Below are positions 23,404 to 59,689 of a DNA stretch of 64,000 bases, in pieces. Below the pieces are notes generated by a model. The model searched no databases, had not been told where the DNA came from, and saw only the letters and a list, made by a program, of their open reading frames with translations. The stretch comes from a bacterium. GTDB lineage: Bacteria > Zhuqueibacterota > Zhuqueibacteria > Residuimicrobiales > Krinioviventaceae. The position numbers were made by a program, and so were the translations under genes. The stretch is taken from positions 2,240,001-2,304,000 of the forward strand of contig OY843751.1 in the NCBI GenBank assembly GCA_963693055.1. Reading direction: 5' to 3'. Every line of letters begins with the position of its first letter. Position 1 is the first letter of the stretch.

Positions 23404-24852
23404 ATGTGGACACTGAAATTTGAGTTGAATATGAAAGCTGGTTTAAAATATAAATTATATATACATATATTTTTTGGGGTTTTAATCATGCTGTGTATTC
23501 CACAGGATGGTTGTACGGAGACAATTCAAACCATTTATATTTCACAACAAGACGGAACGGATATTGATAATATTGGTAATGACAAAAACAAACCCATTCG
23601 TACATTGGCAAGGGCCAGAATTATTGCATTATCGAATTGGAGAAATGTGGATGGTTTTGAGATACTTTTTAAGGGGGGCGAACAATTTGACGAGTTTATA
23701 CCCATTACAAATCAGGTTCTAAAAGATTATGATCCATTACGCAATTCGTTTGCATTTGTCTGGGATATTGACAGGTCTTTGAAAATTTCTACTTTTGGAT
23801 CTCAAGAAAAAGCCATCATGTATTCAGACAAATATACGCATGAAGGAGGCCCGCAGACAGCAATAGCTGTTACAACTCCCAGTAGCCGGAATGTTATTGT
23901 TGAAAATATTCATTTCAAACATTGGCAGGTTTGCGCTTTTTTTGCGTACAAGACCCGTAACATTCAATTTTTGAACAATATTGTTGAAGAAATTGGAACC
24001 CTTTATTTCCCTGATGAAAAAACACCGGGGATTTATGGAGCGGGTGCCATATATCCCAAAAACTCTTCCAATGTATTCATTAAAGGAAACTATATTCTCA
24101 ATATTCATAATCAGTTTGATATGCTCGACAAGATGCATGTTTTTTATTTAACCCGGTTGAACAATTCTGAGATATGTGATAATATTATAATAAACGCAAG
24201 CGGACCACCGTTAAAGTTTCGTCGTTCTCAGACCAATAATGTTTATGTGCATGATAATGAATTTTACTATACCGGACCCTCACAATCCTTAAATCAGGTT
24301 CAGGAAGGCTGGGTGAGGTATAGCGGAGATGCTGATGATGGCTGCCCCTATGCAATAGTCATAGAACACAATTTGTTTTATTATCCATATTGTTGGGAAG
24401 GCACGCAAGCTTGTGATAATGCTTTGGCTGTAAAATACAGTATAAGCAATACAAGCGTTTGTGGTACGGAGGCTTGCGAGGATGATGAAAAGGTAAAGTG
24501 GATTGATAACGACTATCGTTATGAATGGGAATCCTATACTGTACCAGATATACCTACCCGTGTTGAAAATACAATAGCCAGTGATGTCGGAACATTTGAA
24601 TTGTTTGAAAACTATCCCAATCCATTTAATCCGGTAACAGAGATTTGTTTCCGAATACCAACCCGTAATCAAACCCGGTTAAACATATACAATGAATTAG
24701 GTGAAATTGTACGTAATCTTGTTGACAAAAGTTTAGAACCCGGATATCATCATTTCACTTTTAATGCCAGTGAATTACCATCCGGAATTTATTTTTACAG
24801 ACTTGAAAGTGGAGAATTGAACAAAACAAACAAGATGGTACTGATAAAATAA
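23404..24852 (+). CDS. right-handed beta-helix (pectin-lyase-like) protein with T9SS-type sorting domain
   Basis: Asn-ladder repeats 'NVIVENIHF', 'NIQFLNNIV', 'NVFIKGNYI', 'NVYVHDNEF'; CTD 'ENYPNPFNP...KMVLIK'. Confidence 0.75.
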   Translation: MWTLKFELNMKAGLKYKLYIHIFFGVLIMLCIPQDGCTETIQTIYISQQDGTDIDNIGNDKNKPIRTLARARIIALSNWRNVDGFEILFKGGEQFDEFIPITNQVLKDYDPLRNSFAFVWDIDRSLKISTFGSQEKAIMYSDKYTHEGGPQTAIAVTTPSSRNVIVENIHFKHWQVCAFFAYKTRNIQFLNNIVEEIGTLYFPDEKTPGIYGAGAIYPKNSSNVFIKGNYILNIHNQFDMLDKMHVFYLTRLNNSEICDNIIINASGPPLKFRRSQTNNVYVHDNEFYYTGPSQSLNQVQEGWVRYSGDADDGCPYAIVIEHNLFYYPYCWEGTQACDNALAVKYSISNTSVCGTEACEDDEKVKWIDNDYRYEWESYTVPDIPTRVENTIASDVGTFELFENYPNPFNPVTEICFRIPTRNQTRLNIYNELGEIVRNLVDKSLEPGYHHFTFNASELPSGIYFYRLESGELNKTNKMVLIK

Positions 24853-24872
24853 GGAAAATTTTCCGGTAGGTT

Positions 24873-24901
24873 TTGGAAAAAAGGCGGTTATTTCATATAG
24901 T
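24873..24901 (+). promoter_or_regulatory. sigma70-like promoter at the left end of the element
   Basis: TTGGAA-17 nt-TATAGT directly inside the left TIR, upstream of ATG 24958. Confidence 0.45.
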
Positions 24902-24957
24902 ATTTACTAGAAGTAACCGGAAGTCAAACAAAGATTTTAAAACTTACCGGAGGACAA

Positions 24958-25785
24958 ATGTACAATACTCGTAGTAGTTTGTATGACAGGATATTAGAAA
25001 AAACACCCGAGCAAGTATTCATCAATTCTTTACGAAAAGAATTTGAATTATCACCGGCAGAAAGTAAAGGGATATTGGATTTAGCCAAGCAGTGTTTATT
25101 TGGCGAGGTTCCCCAGACAGTTGGTAAAATAAAATATATCTGCGCATCCACCAAGGCAAAACATGGCAAGCCCCTGGGTGAGCAGGAATTGAAAGAAGTA
25201 GAGTTAACACTGGATGCCGGTGTAGAAGATTTAAATGTATTAAAAGAAAGCGGTCCCAAGGCACTGCGCCAGTTAAAGGTCTTACGATTGACCGAAGAAG
25301 CCTGGGATCAGGAAGGTTCTTTGACACAAGAGGATTTGGCCCGGATCCTCCAGGTTACGAGTCGCACTGTACGCCAGGATATAAAGTCTTTGCAGACTGA
25401 TGGCAACTTTATTCACACGCGCGGAACAGACCATGACATCGGTCGGAGCTTGTCACACAAAAGCCACATTATTGAACTGTATTTGCAGGGAGACACATAC
25501 GATGCAATTATTCGTAAAAGTCGTCATAGCGCGTTTTCAATAAAACGATATGTGTGCAGCTTTGGCAGGCTGTTGTTATTACTGAATCATGGTATGCAGG
25601 ATATCAAAGAGATCAGTCGGTTATTAGGCCAAAGTGAGCGTTTGACCCGTGAGTACCTGGATATTTTTGAGCATCATAAACAGGGTGACAAATGGCCGCC
25701 GATCTATGTAGAGTTATTGGAGCAATTAAAGGTGTTATACCCCTCGAAAAAAAAACAAACCAAGGAGGGGACCGATGAAGACTAA
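24958..25785 (+). CDS. DUF1670-domain protein A
   Basis: 'EAWDQEGSLTQEDLARILQVTSRTVRQDI...TRGTDHDIGRSLSHK...IIELYLQG...RHSAFSIKRY' matches the DUF1670 pattern as recalled; GGAGGA RBS. Confidence 0.85.
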   Translation: MYNTRSSLYDRILEKTPEQVFINSLRKEFELSPAESKGILDLAKQCLFGEVPQTVGKIKYICASTKAKHGKPLGEQELKEVELTLDAGVEDLNVLKESGPKALRQLKVLRLTEEAWDQEGSLTQEDLARILQVTSRTVRQDIKSLQTDGNFIHTRGTDHDIGRSLSHKSHIIELYLQGDTYDAIIRKSRHSAFSIKRYVCSFGRLLLLLNHGMQDIKEISRLLGQSERLTREYLDIFEHHKQGDKWPPIYVELLEQLKVLYPSKKKQTKEGTDED

Positions 25786-26590
25786 GCCTTTAAATCGTTA
25801 TGAATCAATAGCTAAGCGTAGCTTTCAAAATGCGATTATTCGATTACTGGAAGAAAATTATAAAATGCTGGGAAGCCACAAAGTCATCCGGATGATTGCA
25901 GAAGATATTGTCGCATTGCAAAATGAATTTTATCCAGAGCTGGAAAAGAAAAGTTTTGGTCAGATTATCTGGCGGACAACCAAAGCGACAAACCGAAAGC
26001 CAAGCTATGGCACAAAAGCGGAAGATTATGAGGTTCAGACAGTTGTGCTACCGTTGGTAACAGATGCGGATATTGACAATCGTATCAAAAGCCATTATTC
26101 TTATCCCCCAAAAGATGGCAGTGCTAATTATGAAAAACAAACAGAACGGGATATTAAAGTAATGGCGCGGTTATGCAAGAGTGCGGCAGAACAGGGCGGC
26201 TGGTTGACAGGTGCAGAACTCAGTGTATTGTTGAATCGCTCATTAAACACTATTGGTCGGTATATGACAATTTATCATGAAACGCATGATGATATATTGC
26301 CGACTAAAGGAATGATGCTGGATCAGGGCAGTAAGCCGACGCATAAAGCCGCAATTATAGATTTGTACGAGCAGGGATATCCCGAACCGGATATCGCCCG
26401 GATTACAAATCACACAATTGAATCAACGAGTCGGTATTTAAAGAGTTACAAGAACGTAAAATCATTATTGGAAAAAGGTTTTAATTTAATGGAAATGGTA
26501 AGAATAACCGGATTAGGACGGAGTACAATATTACAATACCGTGATCTGGTTTATCATTATCATTCAGATTTAATACAAAAGAAAACTTGA
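25775..26590 (+). CDS. DUF1670-domain protein B (paralog of A)
   Basis: 'AAEQGGWLTGAELSVLLNRS...PTKGMMLDQGSKPTHK..IIDLYEQG...NHTIESTSRY'; AAGGAGGGG RBS; overlaps the end of A. Confidence 0.85.
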   Translation: MKTKPLNRYESIAKRSFQNAIIRLLEENYKMLGSHKVIRMIAEDIVALQNEFYPELEKKSFGQIIWRTTKATNRKPSYGTKAEDYEVQTVVLPLVTDADIDNRIKSHYSYPPKDGSANYEKQTERDIKVMARLCKSAAEQGGWLTGAELSVLLNRSLNTIGRYMTIYHETHDDILPTKGMMLDQGSKPTHKAAIIDLYEQGYPEPDIARITNHTIESTSRYLKSYKNVKSLLEKGFNLMEMVRITGLGRSTILQYRDLVYHYHSDLIQKKT

Positions 26591-26614
26591 AAATTTGAAA
26601 AGGAATTAATAGGT

Positions 26615-26711
26615 TAGGTTGTCATTGTTTTTCAGCTAACTCCAGTCGCCCTACGAGCTCCTTTCGTTAGCTGAAAAAATGAATAAATGTTCTAATCTTA
26701 AAAACAACCTA
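26615..26711 (+). other. structured non-coding segment at the element's right end
   Basis: 13-bp perfect stem TTTTTCAGCTAAC (26628-40)/GTTAGCTGAAAAA (26666-78), enclosed by TAGGTTGT (26615-22)/ACAACCTA (26704-11). Confidence 0.6.
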
Positions 26712-26759
26712 CCGGAAATATTTCCTAAACGTAAGTAGGAAAACTATTAATTAAAGGAT

Positions 26760-33952: not shown

Positions 33953-35722
33953 ATGAAGCTCGGAGTTTGGGATTATATAATACTTGTAGCATACTTGATG
34001 ATTGCCCTTGTTTTGGTAGGTCTTTATTTTAAACGTGCAAGCAAAGGGGTAGAAGAGTATTTTGCAGCCGGGCGTTCTTTGCCTTGGTGGCTTTTGGGCA
34101 CATCTATGGTTGCCACTACCTTTAGTACCGATACGCCAAATCTTGTTGCAAATCTGGTTCGTGAAAATGGCGTGTCTGGTAATTGGGTGTGGTGGTCTTT
34201 TCTGGTTACCGGAATGCTGACCGTGTTTTTTTATGCACGACTATGGCGACGCTCTGGGGTACTTACCGATCTCGAGTTTTATGAATTGCGTTATTCCGGT
34301 AAATCCGCAACCATTGTTAGAGGTTTTAGAGCTTTATATCTGGGTTTCTTTTTTAATACTGTTATTATGGCTACGGTAACATTGTCTGCTGTCAAGATTG
34401 CCAACATTCTTTTTGGTTGGTCAAGAATTGAGACGGTTATTATTTGTTCATTGGGGTCTGTTGCTTTTTCTGTTACATCCGGTTTATGGGGAGTCGTTGT
34501 GACAGATTTGCTTTTGTTTATAATGGCAATGGTCGGCTCCATATCTGCAGCCTGGTTTTCTTTGCAGCATCCCAGTGTTGGTGGATTGCATGGTTTGGTG
34601 GATAAAATTGATCCTCAAACATTGAGCTTGCTACCGGATTTTAGCCATATGGAATCAGCTCTTGCTATTTTTATAATTCCATTGGCAGTTCAATGGTGGT
34701 CTGTTTGGTATCCCGGTGCAGAACCCGGTGGCGGCAGTTATATTGCACAAAGAATGCTGGCGGCAAAAAATGAACGTCACTCTATGGGTGCAACACTCTG
34801 GTTCAATATTGCGCATTATGGCCTGAGACCCTGGCCCTGGATTATTGTGGGGTTGTGCTCGATTTTGGTTTATCCCACTCTTGGTGATATTCAGCAGGTT
34901 TTTCCCCATGTCAGTCCCAATCTTGTGGGGCATGATATTGCCTACCCGGCAATGCTGGTGTTTTTGCCGGAAGGTTTTAGAGGGGTTATGGTGGCTTCGT
35001 TAATTGCTGCATACTTGTCTACTATGGATACTAGTTTAAATTGGGGGGCTTCTTATTTAGTACATGATTTTTATAGACGTTTTTTTAAACCTCAAGCCAG
35101 TCAACATCATTATGTTATGATTTCCCGATTTAGTACTTTGTTATTGATGGTTTTTGCTGCACTAATTGTGTTTGTACTGGATACCGCCAAAGACAGCTTT
35201 GATTTATTATTATCTATTGGGGCAGGTACAGGTTTGATTTACCTGCTGCGCTGGTTCTGGTGGCGTATCAACGCGTGGAGTGAAATTGCTGCAATGATCA
35301 GCTCATTCATTATTGCATTTGCTCTGTTTTTTGCAAAACATGCAGGATTAGAATTGTCAACATACTCAACTTTGATCATTAGTGTTGCAGCAACTACATT
35401 TATATGGATGCTGGTAACTTTATTAACAAAACCGGATGACATTAATGTGCTGGAAAAGTTTTATAAACTTGTTAGACCTGCGGGAAATGGATGGAAACCA
35501 ATACAAAATCGTCTTCGACTTGGTCCTTCTGATGACAGTGTTACGCTGAGTATTTTGGGATGGATTCTGGGTTGTGTTTTTGTTTATTCAGCCCTGTTTA
35601 TGATGGGATACATTCTCTATGGACAATATATTTTAGCCATTATTTGTCTGGTACCTTTTCTTGTTAGTACAATTGGTTTGTATAAAATTTTAATTCGTAT
35701 GTTTAGTACCCAAAATTATTAA
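33953..35722 (+). CDS. sodium:solute symporter (SSS family)
   Basis: 'EYFAAGRSLPWWLLGTSMVATTFSTDTP', 'YIAQRMLAAKNE', 'AAYLSTMDT'; many TM helices. Confidence 0.92.
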   Translation: MKLGVWDYIILVAYLMIALVLVGLYFKRASKGVEEYFAAGRSLPWWLLGTSMVATTFSTDTPNLVANLVRENGVSGNWVWWSFLVTGMLTVFFYARLWRRSGVLTDLEFYELRYSGKSATIVRGFRALYLGFFFNTVIMATVTLSAVKIANILFGWSRIETVIICSLGSVAFSVTSGLWGVVVTDLLLFIMAMVGSISAAWFSLQHPSVGGLHGLVDKIDPQTLSLLPDFSHMESALAIFIIPLAVQWWSVWYPGAEPGGGSYIAQRMLAAKNERHSMGATLWFNIAHYGLRPWPWIIVGLCSILVYPTLGDIQQVFPHVSPNLVGHDIAYPAMLVFLPEGFRGVMVASLIAAYLSTMDTSLNWGASYLVHDFYRRFFKPQASQHHYVMISRFSTLLLMVFAALIVFVLDTAKDSFDLLLSIGAGTGLIYLLRWFWWRINAWSEIAAMISSFIIAFALFFAKHAGLELSTYSTLIISVAATTFIWMLVTLLTKPDDINVLEKFYKLVRPAGNGWKPIQNRLRLGPSDDSVTLSILGWILGCVFVYSALFMMGYILYGQYILAIICLVPFLVSTIGLYKILIRMFSTQNY

Positions 35723-55645: not shown

Positions 55646-57136
55646 TTATCTTCGTGAAAGGCGAATACCATAATAGATAATAACCGAGATGATTATCAGT
55701 ATAAACAGGATGATGATTAAAGAACCTGCTGTATTTGATTTCGCTTCTACCTGTACAATAACGGTTTTCTCTTCGCCATATACAGGACGGTTGTCAGATA
55801 AGGACGTGGATTTAATCCTGAATTCATAACGTCCTGTACTAATGTCCTGCGGTGGCGTTAGAGTGATTAGTGTCTGTTTTTCTTTACCAATTTCCAGAGA
55901 TGGCGTCAATTCTGGGTCTATATGTTTTTCCCATTTCATGGGTGTATCAGCTTCAACTTTGATATTATCAAGACGACGTGAACCTTCATTGATCAGTTCT
56001 ATATTAAATGAAACCTGTTCGTTGGGACGAATGGAGAAATAGAGCATGGGCGCACGCACCAGGAGCTTACCCACCCCGCGGGGTACCAGTTCTAAACGAA
56101 CATAGCCAATGTTCAGTGTATCCAGTTCTTTATCACTCCAGATTTTTTCAGAATTATTAAATTCACTAATCAGGTTACGAGGTACTGCAAGCACATAAAA
56201 GGGGATTGCCTGATCAATAGCAATTTCATCTGATGGACGGTCAGGCATAAAGACCTGTAATGCTGCTTGCCGGGTATTTGTACTTTCGGTAAATTTGAAC
56301 TGGCTTAATCTAGCCTGGCTTGCAGGATCCATGAAATAATGGTTAATCTGTTTTGGCAGATTTACTACCAAAAGTTTAAACGTATTGTTAACCGCACTGA
56401 ACAATTCCAGGGTCAGATCGAGAGATGCTGACTCGCCAAGTTCAACTTCTTGAGAGAATTGCTCTGATTGAACAATGACCTTGTTTTCGGATTCATCTTT
56501 TTGTAAAAAGATTTTAGGACTTCGCTGGCTCCCGTTACTGTACAAGAGGTTTACAGTAACCGCATCTACATCCTGAAGTAAGCCAAAGTCCAGTGTAATG
56601 GGTTTACCGTAAAAAAGTTGTTCAATTTTAGCTTCATAAGGTTGACTGATGATGGCATTGTCGTCATTCAAGAGTGAAACATAAACGTCATGTACCGTTT
56701 CCGGTTGCAGTGCATTATAAAGATCATCATCAATATTTAGCAGTTTTTTAAACTCGGCTGTACCTCCAGATGTATTTGCCAATGTGATTTTGACTCGTTT
56801 TTGTCCGGTTTTGGATTGATACTTTACTGCATTTTTTACACCTACATACTGATTTTCAAACAGGACGGCCAACAGGGATTGCTGATAATTAACTTCAGCA
56901 TCTGTCATCATGTTTCTTGCATTGTCCATTTCCTGTTGCGATGTAAGCCCATTGTCAAACATGTCTTTGATTCTCTCGAACCGTTTTTTTGACATGTCAT
57001 ATGCTTCCTTGGCCCGTTTTAATCCTAACAGCGTATATTGATCATCCCGTTGATTAAAATATGTTCCGGTTTGACTGAACGCGAGCGAGTACAGGATAAA
57101 GACGATTGAAAAGTATTTTAATAGCTGATTCTGCAT
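55646..57136 (-). CDS. membrane-anchored NEW3/Ig-like domain protein with N-terminal helical hairpin
   Basis: Signal peptide; 'AYDMSKKRFERIKDMFDNGLTSQQEMDNA' resembles HlyD/TolC hairpins; 'NEGSRRLDNI...P..W...LEIG...LTPP.DIS.G.Y'; C-terminal TM. Confidence 0.7.
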   Translation of the reverse strand: MQNQLLKYFSIVFILYSLAFSQTGTYFNQRDDQYTLLGLKRAKEAYDMSKKRFERIKDMFDNGLTSQQEMDNARNMMTDAEVNYQQSLLAVLFENQYVGVKNAVKYQSKTGQKRVKITLANTSGGTAEFKKLLNIDDDLYNALQPETVHDVYVSLLNDDNAIISQPYEAKIEQLFYGKPITLDFGLLQDVDAVTVNLLYSNGSQRSPKIFLQKDESENKVIVQSEQFSQEVELGESASLDLTLELFSAVNNTFKLLVVNLPKQINHYFMDPASQARLSQFKFTESTNTRQAALQVFMPDRPSDEIAIDQAIPFYVLAVPRNLISEFNNSEKIWSDKELDTLNIGYVRLELVPRGVGKLLVRAPMLYFSIRPNEQVSFNIELINEGSRRLDNIKVEADTPMKWEKHIDPELTPSLEIGKEKQTLITLTPPQDISTGRYEFRIKSTSLSDNRPVYGEEKTVIVQVEAKSNTAGSLIIILFILIIISVIIYYGIRLSRR

Positions 57137-57147
57137 TGAACATCTCG

Positions 57148-57909
57148 TTATTTTTTGATAATGATATTGTCTTTGATTTCCGGTTTAATAAAAGTGACCT
57201 TAACAGTTTTATCTTTATTTTTAAATAATAAAGTGGTTTTCTCTCCAATTTTTATTTTAGAATAGAGTGCGTCAAAATCCATCTTGTTGTTAACAGGATT
57301 ATCATTAATGGACAGCAATTGACTGCCGGGTTCTATCTTTGTTTTACCAAGAATAGTATGCGCATGTGGCAGAACATCAAATACTGTCAGGGTATTGTTG
57401 TTTTCTTCCAATACCAGTCCTTCTCCTGCAAGGATAATGAGATTTTCTGCACCCTTGAGTACAACTTGTTCATCATCGCTCATATCATCATCAGGCATTT
57501 TATCTTGAATTATCATCACGCGTTTTCCATCCTGGGCCTCTAAATCCATTTTTTTGAATGCAATCATGAGCATTTGTCCATCTCGTTGTATTCCCATTTT
57601 TACATCTGATCCCGGATCCAGTGAATCATAAAGTTTATTAACATCATATGCACTTTTTACTCTTTTTTTGTTTACCATCAATATTGTATCAGCCTCTTGA
57701 AGTTCGATTTCACGATATGCTTCAGGGCGGGTTTCTTCCGGTAATAGATTTGCAATTTTGACAATGTTGTTCTCACCTGATAGCACCATCCCTAATTCTG
57801 ATATTATAAAAATATCATCACCGCTAATTTCAATCTTTTTCATATGTACCTGAGCAAATGCGGTAGTAAATAGCAACAGAATAAACAGAGATTCAATTGT
57901 TCTTTTCAT
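57148..57909 (-). CDS. periplasmic tandem PDZ-like domain protein
   Basis: Signal peptide; two PDZ-like units ('LQEADTILMVN', 'IEPGSQLLSIND'). Confidence 0.7.
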   Translation of the reverse strand: MKRTIESLFILLLFTTAFAQVHMKKIEISGDDIFIISELGMVLSGENNIVKIANLLPEETRPEAYREIELQEADTILMVNKKRVKSAYDVNKLYDSLDPGSDVKMGIQRDGQMLMIAFKKMDLEAQDGKRVMIIQDKMPDDDMSDDEQVVLKGAENLIILAGEGLVLEENNNTLTVFDVLPHAHTILGKTKIEPGSQLLSINDNPVNNKMDFDALYSKIKIGEKTTLLFKNKDKTVKVTFIKPEIKDNIIIKK

Positions 57910-57970
57910 TTTTTCTCCAATCTTTTCTTATATTTTGTACGCTAAATATAAGTAATTGTTTTTATTGACT

Positions 57971-58010
57971 ATAGTTAAATAGTGTTATAAAGTGTTAAAA
58001 AGTGTTAAAA
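57971..58010. promoter_or_regulatory. four tandem 10-bp repeats, probable OmpR/PhoB-type operator
   Basis: ATAGTTAAAT AGTGTTATAA AGTGTTAAAA AGTGTTAAAA between divergent operons. Confidence 0.7.
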
Positions 58011-58048
58011 TTCGTGTTTTTTTGATCAATTTGTGTTATGTTTAACTC

Positions 58049-59689
58049 ATGAATAATAAGCATATACAAATTGGGATCTTTGCTCTCATCATACTGTCTT
58101 TTATTGGATTGGCTGGATTACAGCTTTATTTGTACAATCATAATAAAGATCTGGAAAAGCAGTCTTTTGATAACATTGTGGAAAATACACTCGGTCAAAT
58201 TGTAAAAAAGATAGAAGCTTTGGATATAGCTGGTAATATAATTCAAATGACACATAACGATTCAACATATCACAAAATTATCCAAATCGATTCCTGTGAT
58301 ACCATGATTACCCGCATTCAACAGATGAATGGTGTGGTAGATACAACAGTAAAGATGCACATTGTATCCGCATACGATTCAATTGATACCCTTGTTGATC
58401 CCCAGGGAGGGAATGCTGCAAGTGCATTTGTTTATAAATTTGAAAAATCCATTTTAGACAGCACAATGATTCTAGACCATGACAGTATGAACGTAATGAT
58501 AAAAATTGCGTCGGATGGGAATGATAGCCATATCAATGCGAATGTGGATCTGACTGATCGCAAGTTAATGATTGAAAAAGTTGTGAATGATTTGACTCTT
58601 TTAAGATCCAAACCAGTTATGCAAAGAATACAACCTGCTGTTCTGGATTCAATAATAACAATTACGTTGACTCAAAATGCGCTTGATCTCAATTATTCAT
58701 TCGCCATATTAGATACCCGAATCGATTCTCTGTTATATACCAGTCCTGGTTATCAATCCAATTATATAACCCGTGCATATAAAAAACAGCTTTTCCCCAA
58801 TGATCTGTTACCTGTTCCTGTGCAGTTGTGTGTGTATTTCCCAACCCAGGGTTCTTTTTTATTCAAGCGTTCTGGCACATGGATACTATTAACATTGTTT
58901 TTTATTCTTGTACTTGTATCCAGTTTTGTTTATTTGTCTGGTCTACTATTGAGGCAGAAACAATTTTTTAATCATATTGTTAATTTTATAAACAATATGA
59001 CTCACGAGTTTAAAACTCCCGTCTCAACGCTGTCATTGGTTGGAGAAGCGCTAAAAAGCCCGGATATTATTGGTAATCATGAAAAATTATTGCGCTACAG
59101 TCAGGTTATTGATGATGAAACAATACGCATGCGAAACCAGGTTGAAAAAATATTGCAAATGGCAGCTTTGGAAAGTGGTCAGGTTGAGTTAAGTAATGAG
59201 AGTGTATCTGTTCATCTATTATTGATAAAGTTGATGAAAAGGTACCAATTCTTGCAGGAGAAAGGCAAGCTGACTTGTCAAATTAAACTAGATGCAATTC
59301 GTGAAATTGTACTTGCAGATCCTGTTCATTTAATGAATGTTTTTGATAATCTGGTAGATAATGCCATCAAATACAATCTCAATACTCCCAATATTCTTGT
59401 TACCACACAAAATGATCAAAGTAGAATTGTTATAATATTTCAGGACAATGGAATTGGAATTTCTGCTCAAGATCAAAAGTTGATTTTTAATACCTATTAC
59501 CGTGTACCAACTGGCAACGTACATGATGTTAAGGGATTTGGATTGGGATTGAGTTATGTAAAGCGTATTGTAGAATTGCTACACGGTGAGATAGATGTCA
59601 AGAGTCAGATAGGCAAAGGCTCTCTTTTTCAAATCTTTTTGCCATTACAGTCAGATAAAATACCGGAAAGATATGACAAAAAAGATTAA
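58049..59689 (+). CDS. sensor histidine kinase
   Basis: Two TM helices; H-box 'NNMTHEFKTP', 'NLVDNAIKY', 'DNGIGI', 'GFGLGL'. Confidence 0.95.
   Translation: MNNKHIQIGIFALIILSFIGLAGLQLYLYNHNKDLEKQSFDNIVENTLGQIVKKIEALDIAGNIIQMTHNDSTYHKIIQIDSCDTMITRIQQMNGVVDTTVKMHIVSAYDSIDTLVDPQGGNAASAFVYKFEKSILDSTMILDHDSMNVMIKIASDGNDSHINANVDLTDRKLMIEKVVNDLTLLRSKPVMQRIQPAVLDSIITITLTQNALDLNYSFAILDTRIDSLLYTSPGYQSNYITRAYKKQLFPNDLLPVPVQLCVYFPTQGSFLFKRSGTWILLTLFFILVLVSSFVYLSGLLLRQKQFFNHIVNFINNMTHEFKTPVSTLSLVGEALKSPDIIGNHEKLLRYSQVIDDETIRMRNQVEKILQMAALESGQVELSNESVSVHLLLIKLMKRYQFLQEKGKLTCQIKLDAIREIVLADPVHLMNVFDNLVDNAIKYNLNTPNILVTTQNDQSRIVIIFQDNGIGISAQDQKLIFNTYYRVPTGNVHDVKGFGLGLSYVKRIVELLHGEIDVKSQIGKGSLFQIFLPLQSDKIPERYDKKD

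Follow-up and report, generated by a model that had tools for sequence, protein, structure and literature searches.

At the locus analysed here, a gene whose product carries a T9SS type A sorting domain (23404..24852; TIGR04183, E 1.8e-9) runs directly into an insertion element of 1884 bp (24849..26732), which now completes the last codon and the stop of that gene. Coordinates refer to the window, the whole 64,000-nucleotide stretch of bacterial DNA that was analysed, and all genes and other stranded features described here lie on its forward (+) strand. The element sits between two copies of a 2-bp core, AA. The gene-side copy (24847..24848) supplies bases one and two of the final Lys codon, and the far-side copy (26733..26734) is followed by the displaced original gene end (26735..26738), consisting of the third base of the Lys codon and a TAG stop, which matches the empty allele of another genome, G001. 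The first four bases of the element, ATAA (24849..24852), provide the third base of the last codon and a replacement stop, and are constant in 7/7 copies. They are followed by the left 19-bp sub-terminal inverted repeat (24853..24871), in which a 12-bp imperfect palindrome (24853-24864) is the likely binding site, and by a sigma-70-like promoter candidate for orfA (24873..24901) that matches the consensus at only 9 of 12 positions. Two more partial copies of the inner-repeat motif (24910-24955), just upstream of the orfA start, are possibly autoregulation sites.

Two genes are present in the element, and its open reading frames reveal no others. The first, orfA (24958..25785), encodes the DUF1670 protein A of 275 aa, with N-terminal helices, a beta-hairpin and three helix-turn-helix (HTH) units, and the second, orfB (25775..26590), encodes its paralogue, the DUF1670 protein B of 271 aa. 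Both contain a candidate catalytic cluster, made up of R155, D160, H167, K168, H190, R197 and Y198 in the linker and second HTH of A (25420..25551), and of K178, D183, H190, K191, H213, R220 and Y221 in B (26306..26437). A run of nine A (25747..25755), where both frames are open, is a candidate slippage site at which an A-B fusion may be produced. Downstream, the 3' non-coding part contains a hairpin (26629..26678; z -3.76 for 26591-26734, no Rfam match), the right 19-bp sub-terminal inverted repeat (26707..26725) with a 12-bp palindrome at 26714-26725, and a 7-bp outer spacer (26726..26732), part of the element, that is constant in 7/7 copies and in G001, G003, G013 and G024. At E<=0.1, the proteins of the element match none of the transposase models in NCBIfam.

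This is a two-gene DUF1670 insertion sequence, and near-identical copies together with an empty site demonstrate its mobility. The complete genome that holds the window (G000) contains seven copies, the window copy included, with ends that are constant in all of them; five copies differ from the window copy by 3-5 differences each and one by 138. In a read assembly (run X1) a collapsed repeat unitig corresponds to 24847-26734, at about 6-7x the depth of its flanks. The empty site was found in G001, which belongs to the same genus, and there the gene end reads ATC AAG TAG. In all seven copies there are four fixed bases beyond the left 19-bp repeat and seven beyond the right one, and then AA on each side, so the repeats are sub-terminal. 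The first-pass annotation had proposed that the joined ends form a near-palindrome around TAA, with TAA as a crossover core rather than a target duplication. The 19-bp repeats are real, but the joined form has 13 nt between them, not 3, and TAA is missing from the insertion point in the G001 empty allele; it is therefore neither duplicated nor the core, and belongs to the four bases of the element. On these grounds TAA as a target duplication is rejected as well. What survives of the proposal is the preference for a core, as the flanks fit short-core exchange better than a duplication, with a core other than TAA.

The same layout, with different 12-bp palindromes, is found in other subfamilies. 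All 47 left ends that could be sorted from 80 listed metagenomic loci (of at least 128) begin with ATAA or ATAG. The 3' hairpin is missing in a relative (G013), and the 3' part is very short in G311 and G418. A sister DUF1670 family, with about 33% protein identity to the window element, is present in six copies in the same complete genome (G000:C1 about 56,380-58,235 and five more places, ~1850 bp); it has the same target type, with its genes oppositely oriented relative to the gene-side end. Remnants occur as well. One decayed copy (L273, in G288:C33) has a direct repeat of ~35 bp at its flanks, unlike all other copies; a solo far-side end lacks any remaining element (G000:C1 333,437); and many solo gene-side ends, with no element attached, are seen at sorting-domain gene ends (G000:C1 1,730,449; 3,844,073; 5,684,747; 5,975,650; L189, L192, L193, L207-L214). 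The latter usually retain most of the 12-bp palindrome, for which precise deletion, selection or search bias are possible causes. In total, the DUF1670 element is present in 27/133 genomes of its phylum, and the family also occurs in archaea.

What does the element recognise as its target? It inserts within the last codon of T9SS-sorting-domain genes, bringing a new stop. All seven copies of the window element lie at such gene ends, as do four of the six sister copies directly and one after a stacked insertion, the sixth being off target. From the 47 metagenomic left ends (again 80 listed of at least 128 loci), 75 nt of flank were available for 35, and 30 of these were non-redundant; the sorting-domain pattern is present in 27 of the 30 flanks and in one more by eye, and the remaining two follow the far end of another element. 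Across the 27 target sites, most of the information sits in codon positions 1-2; one block spans -65 to -55, a weak one is at the site, and third codon positions are mostly of low information, except in codons fixed by the amino acid. The local 6-base pattern occurs at 34,668 sites in the genome, compared with 124 at T9SS-sorting-domain gene ends of AA type, which indicates that upstream sequence matters for targeting. Open frames ending in a T9SS-type sorting motif number at least 187 in the whole genome, many of them in tandem clusters. As each insertion rebuilds its target, elements can stack. Head-to-tail stacks at one gene end are found at G000:C1 507,850-511,590, at L275, in G003 (L016) and at L059, L070, L086 and L112. 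A few insertions lie away from sorting-domain gene ends, with the AA core still kept (G000:C1 6,088,448; L281; L200).

Both ends could be read by eye in 37 elements, a count that leaves out the unresolved subfamily ends of G011, G034, G103, G105, G130, G178 and G211. AA is found on both sides in 31 of them and another shared pair in three (CG, AG and AG); the three mismatched pairs (CA/AA, CG/AG and AA/TG) stem from draft genomes that contain several copies, and chimeric joins may account for them. Among 301 genomes of another phylum, the gene-side core is AA at 15/15 ends of one repeat variant and CG or AG at 10/11 ends of two others (Fisher 2e-6, from data points that are not independent and with six ends of further variants omitted). 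The far-side core in these genomes is AA in 14/14 and AG in 4/4, and for three of these four AG genomes a gene-side end is listed, which is CG or AG in each case. Hand counts of K/R-type gene ends give xG in 17/120 for five hosts of the xG lineage and in 12/33 for a host of the AA lineage (G420), so the composition of host gene ends does not explain the lineage-specific cores. Every one of the 15 occupied ends in the genome of the window is AA, compared with 124 of the 172 eligible ones (P ~0.007), and a scan of GTDB for complete non-AA elements gave six loci, one of which is complete. These sequence comparisons suggest that the core follows the lineage of the element and that exchange goes via a joined-end intermediate; they favour a core that is carried by the element and has to match the target at its second base. 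A lineage-specific preference of the proteins combined with a 2-bp duplication could be an alternative source of the cores. The joined-end form itself was seen neither in the assembled contigs of runs X1-X4, which drop rare forms, nor in the genome, nor in the 80 metagenomic loci listed out of at least 128. A 2-bp core is atypical of tyrosine chemistry.

Both proteins are clear members of PF07900 (DUF1670; A, E 6.6e-47 and 160 bits; B, E 4.9e-48 and 164 bits; gathering cut-off 25), and their fold is predicted to be a series of helix-turn-helix repeats of the sigma-4/LuxR type. The AlphaFold models (mean pLDDT 84.2 for A and 83.5 for B; pTM 0.62 and 0.56) place N-terminal helices, a beta-hairpin and three stacked HTH units in each protein, with helices 167-176, 181-188 and 192-210 in the second HTH of A. 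Each model has two strands of at least three residues, and an RNase H sheet is absent. The top fold matches are HTH proteins (Z 6.6 for A and 6.3 for B), and for B the first of these, 1d3y (rank 1, Z 6.3, rmsd 2.6, 62 residues aligned), is tied with ordinary regulators. At the level of profiles, the motif segment matches sigma-4 and LuxR domains from the window's genome with probabilities of 92.6% and 81.4%, and the third and first HTH of its own protein with 95.6% and 86%; three of four isolated segments match HTH families at E 0.005-0.2. In a Pfam scan of 139 members, the first 25 of 96 matching families are DUF1670 and HTH-type. PDB sequence searches matched only repeat or HTH proteins, the top clusters listed by the ESM Atlas are all DUF1670, with otherwise weak HTH-like clusters scoring <=0.82, and plasmid, phage and viral collections gave no convincing relative.

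The first-pass annotation had drawn attention to a shared motif in the two proteins, with the spacing of box II of tyrosine recombinases. The motif peptides are present as described, with G-to-H spacing of 12 and H-to-Y spacing of 8 (R155, H167, K168, G178, H190, R197 and Y198 in A; K178, H190, K191, G201, H213, R220 and Y221 in B), and so is the shared basic residue upstream, R155 in A and K178 in B, 12 residues before the first His. A DUF1670 profile run against 1.84 billion representatives matched 2875 of them at E<=0.001, and the analysis covered the best 150; these contain 186 domains, 170 of which span the core and were aligned, 119 of them from single-domain proteins (50% identity clusters). 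In the 119 single-domain representatives from these best 150 of 2875 matches, H167, H190 and Y198 are each present in 118, which bears out conservation of the H-x7-Y pattern across DUF1670, followed by K168 in 116, R or K at 155 in 115, D160 in 105 and R197 in 103. Among close relatives, a strict version of the motif is found in 116/119 A-like and 108/120 B-like proteins. In these alignments, the His/His/Tyr motif is conserved far beyond chance.

The likeness to box II itself did not hold. Against a profile of 28 XerC/D/integrase proteins from the genomes examined (hhalign), whole A and B score a probability of <2%, with box II not paired with the motif, and the motif window scores 0.5% against box II-III (E 0.13). 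At 4.7%, the match of box II to the third HTH, where the His residues are missing, exceeds that to the motif itself, so the likeness is generic. Neither protein matches PF00589, and the HxxR motif is absent: in the best 150 of 2875 matches, the slot of the box II His holds G, T, S, A or K, and that of the Arg holds His in 118/119. The G-to-H spacing of 12 is that of XerC/D from the genomes examined, whereas H-to-Y is 8, not 9, and R155 and H167 are only 12 residues apart. A check by AlphaFold and fold search had been suggested alongside the claim; it recovered tandem HTH units and HTH matches for A and B, and no Xer/Cre/Int fold among the matches listed. Tyrosine recombinase, topoisomerase IB and protelomerase folds are absent from the listed Foldseek PDB matches (no match at E<=0.001), VIA wide matches (none at Z>=8) and Foldseek viral matches (none at E<=0.001), absences that are weak evidence, the N-terminal 95 residues being barely covered. 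Membership of the tyrosine recombinases is rejected on sequence grounds, by the profile probabilities and the missing HxxR. The annotation had also allowed that the motif might simply be an HTH, which is correct for the fold, to judge from the sigma-4/LuxR profiles and the models. The motif is real and important; the family assignment and the core position in that first reading are wrong. Its idea that two paralogues use phosphotyrosine chemistry survives as a hypothesis of similar working on another fold.

Is the motif then more than a plain HTH? Its His residues occupy slots that hold Arg or a hydrophobic residue in ordinary HTHs. H190 lies in the turn slot, where the LuxR and sigma-4 proteins of the window's genome have a hydrophobic residue, and the equivalent slot in the third HTH is variable, with the most common residue at 32% (119 representatives, best 150 of 2875 matches). 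In the same best 150 of 2875 matches, 14 of 20 N-terminal fusion domains are degenerate: H167 is changed to R in 13/14, H190 to L, I, V or M in 13/14, and Y198 is lost in 12/14, while R110 and Q118 are each kept in 14/14 and slot 233 remains aromatic in 14/14. The degenerate domains form one clade in the tree, which indicates a single loss event. The second fusion domains, again from the best 150 of 2875, keep D160, H167, H190 and Y198 in 31/31, with R155 in 24/31 and K168 in 11/31, so each of these two is dispensable in some. Y233, which occupies the Y198 slot in the third HTH without any His, is conserved in 114/119 (best 150 of 2875), and a Tyr in that slot can therefore be structural or a plain phosphate contact. 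By register, Y198 aligns with the His of the LuxR 'TVKxH' helix, which we take to be His190 of NarL. In NarL, His190 is described as contacting the DNA backbone (PMC10853779). From the alignment, a backbone-binding pocket with an extra His and Lys is a plausible origin for an active site, and catalysis by the His/His/Tyr cluster is plausible.

A and B are, to judge from the tree, an ancient and always paired couple. In a quick tree of 71 rows (midpoint drawing, no bootstrap, SH-aLRT 98 for the A/B branch), 22/22 B proteins fall on one side of the branch, as do, from A-B fusions, the second domains and, from four-domain fusions, the last domains; every one of 22 elements pairs a single A with a single B. 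The idea of a XerC/D-like heteropair holds in so far as the pair is concerned; the homology to XerC/D fails in the profiles. In-frame A-B fusions have 532-546 aa, and proteins of 930-952 aa have four domains, two of them intact; in four such single chains (P0243-P0246) the DUF1670-like units are degenerate, intact, truncated and intact, in this order. A run of at least six A within a stretch open in both frames is present in 21/22 elements, a count made with no shuffle control.

The reading that we prefer is that A and B, which probably work together as the recombinase of the element, transpose it through a phosphotyrosine on an HTH scaffold, with the near-invariant Tyr of the second HTH as the predicted transient covalent link to DNA, a reading that the sequences leave evenly balanced. 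Slightly more tentatively, DUF1670 may be an unrecognised class of transposase or recombinase in which an HTH converged on tyrosine-recombinase chemistry, with the A/B pair joining the ends over a heritable 2-bp core and reading a coding motif by its non-wobble bases, all without a guide RNA or any domain of the DDE, HUH, serine or integrase kind. We know of no HTH-only transposase. In such a mechanism, A and B, separate or fused by slippage, would bind the 12-bp palindromes near both ends and join the ends over the 2-bp core, giving a circle. The complex would then read ~65 bp of sorting-domain coding sequence by its non-wobble bases, and strand exchange would take place at the core, with a match to the target required at the second core base; Y198 and Y221 would act as nucleophiles, with His, Lys, Arg and Asp as helpers. 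The four imported bases would finally rebuild the gene end and the target, which would make stacking possible.

An unlikely, though serious, alternative is that A and B are catalytic with the cluster as a metal site or a His-based centre (D160, H167, H190), acting by hydrolysis or another nucleophile, and that the Tyr is structural. The second fusion domains described above would fit this, as D160, H167, H190 and Y198 are invariant there while R155 and K168 vary (best 150 of 2875 matches), and so would Y233, conserved in the parallel slot without any His. However, 12 of the 14 degenerate domains have lost Y198 along with the His residues and yet keep an aromatic residue at slot 233, D160 is replaced in 14/119 single-domain proteins (both in the best 150 of 2875), and a H-hydrophobic-H motif and an RNase H sheet are absent.

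Less probable still is that A and B only bind DNA, at the ends and the target, and leave the strand exchange to a host enzyme that they recruit, for instance XerC/D or a topoisomerase. Every structural or profile match of the two proteins is to a DNA-binding HTH, and XerC/D-like genes are present in 13/13 genomes searched, both of which would fit. Yet the ends of the element vary between subfamilies while the protein cluster is constant, the DUF1670 family is also found in archaea, and an invariant His in a normally hydrophobic slot would, we infer, be unnecessary for ordinary binding. The ends also lack the arm present in the genome's dif-like site, and we reject them as dif-like. That site, at G000:C1 about 2,806,100, lies within ~40 bp of the cumulative GC-skew maximum, and is the one at the maximum among 23 matches to a loose pattern.

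That an RNA encoded by the element guides targeting as in IS110/IS1111, making DUF1670 an RNA-guided recombinase, seems improbable. The sub-terminal repeats, the 2-bp core with a stricter second base and the stable 3' hairpin would agree with what PMC11208158 describes; on the other hand, the third codon positions of the 27 targets carry mostly low information, except in codons fixed by the amino acid, subfamilies whose non-coding parts are unrelated share one target type, and some complete elements have no hairpin and a very short 3' part, with no Rfam match. Finally, we regard it as very improbable that A and B are true, highly diverged tyrosine recombinases in a XerC/D-like heteropair: the G-to-H spacing of 12, the invariant final Tyr and the two paralogues point that way, and against them stand the box II-III probability set beside those of the protein's own third HTH and of sigma-4, the better match of the third HTH to box II, the missing HxxR, both deviating spacings and a target without inverted arms.

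To our knowledge, the known transposase chemistries (DDE, HUH, serine, tyrosine and DEDD) each have their own catalytic domain, and here a recently active and widespread element is without any known transposase catalytic domain. Either a plain HTH has turned into a DNA-breaking enzyme, or a host enzyme is borrowed in an undescribed manner. The analysis singles out H167, H190 and Y198 with their equivalents in B, and defines where the element really ends, along with its 2-bp core. As a tool, too, there could be interest in a compact system whose insertions fall precisely at a stop codon without damage to the gene. In the literature within reach, that is, outside subscription journals, ISfinder and supplements, we found no paper with 'DUF1670' or 'PF07900' and none on this element.

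How does the element compare with known systems? DDE insertion sequences (IS5, IS630, IS3) are rejected as relatives, given that no DDE model is matched, the repeats are sub-terminal and TAA is absent from the empty site. HUH (Y1/Y2) transposases are rejected too: the His-hydrophobic-His motif is absent, and the only invariant His residues are 23 apart (best 150 of 2875 matches). Tn7, directed to attTn7 by TnsD, likewise reads a conserved coding gene end and inserts without harm to the gene. Tn7 relies on a DDE transposase, has a single site per genome and duplicates 5 bp, whereas the present element has more than 100 potential sites (124 AA-type ends), inserts inside the last codon and repairs it with its own bases. 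In the 5Y-CAP domain of topoisomerase VI-A and Spo11, the catalytic Tyr lies on an HTH-type domain. This is a precedent for a Tyr on such a domain, and 1d3y is the first-ranked match of B; in contrast, that match covers the first HTH (119-180) and not the conserved Tyr, and a TOPRIM domain is absent from the element's proteins.

The tyrosine recombinases (XerC/XerD, Cre, lambda Int; PF00589) share with the element two paralogous subunits, the order of Arg/Lys, His, His and final Tyr, the G-x11-H spacing and probably a conservative exchange. Tyrosine recombinases use a 6-8-bp overlap between two inverted arms; the element differs in its 2-bp core, its 13-nt asymmetric spacer (4 + 7 nt from core to repeat) and its armless target, and its proteins lack profile homology and HxxR, the motif lying on a sigma-4/LuxR-type HTH. 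IS110/IS1111 (IS621) elements resemble it in a core dinucleotide on both sides, sub-terminal repeats, specific targets and the lack of an ordinary duplication, and are described as needing a match at the second base of the core (PMC11208158). They have a single recombinase, which combines a DEDD RuvC domain with a catalytic Ser, and use a bridge RNA (PMC11208158). The present element, unlike these, has two HTH-only proteins in which the best Ser column reaches 96/119 (best 150 of 2875 matches), with no RNase H sheet and no Pfam or NCBIfam match to a DEDD RuvC domain, and shows no sign of a guide RNA (no Rfam match, wobble positions largely free). Tn554 and the integrative elements that circularize with a strand bias (SE) have in common with it two cooperating recombinase genes, imperfect end repeats and target specificity, and are akin in that one-sided bases are carried from the donor site (PMC10214605). 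They are described as using RHRY tyrosine recombinases with a 6-bp footprint (PMC10214605), whereas the present element carries over at most 2 bp and has no RHRY recombinase. The element would be like a tyrosine recombinase in its chemistry and like IS110 in the layout of its junctions, and would belong to neither family.
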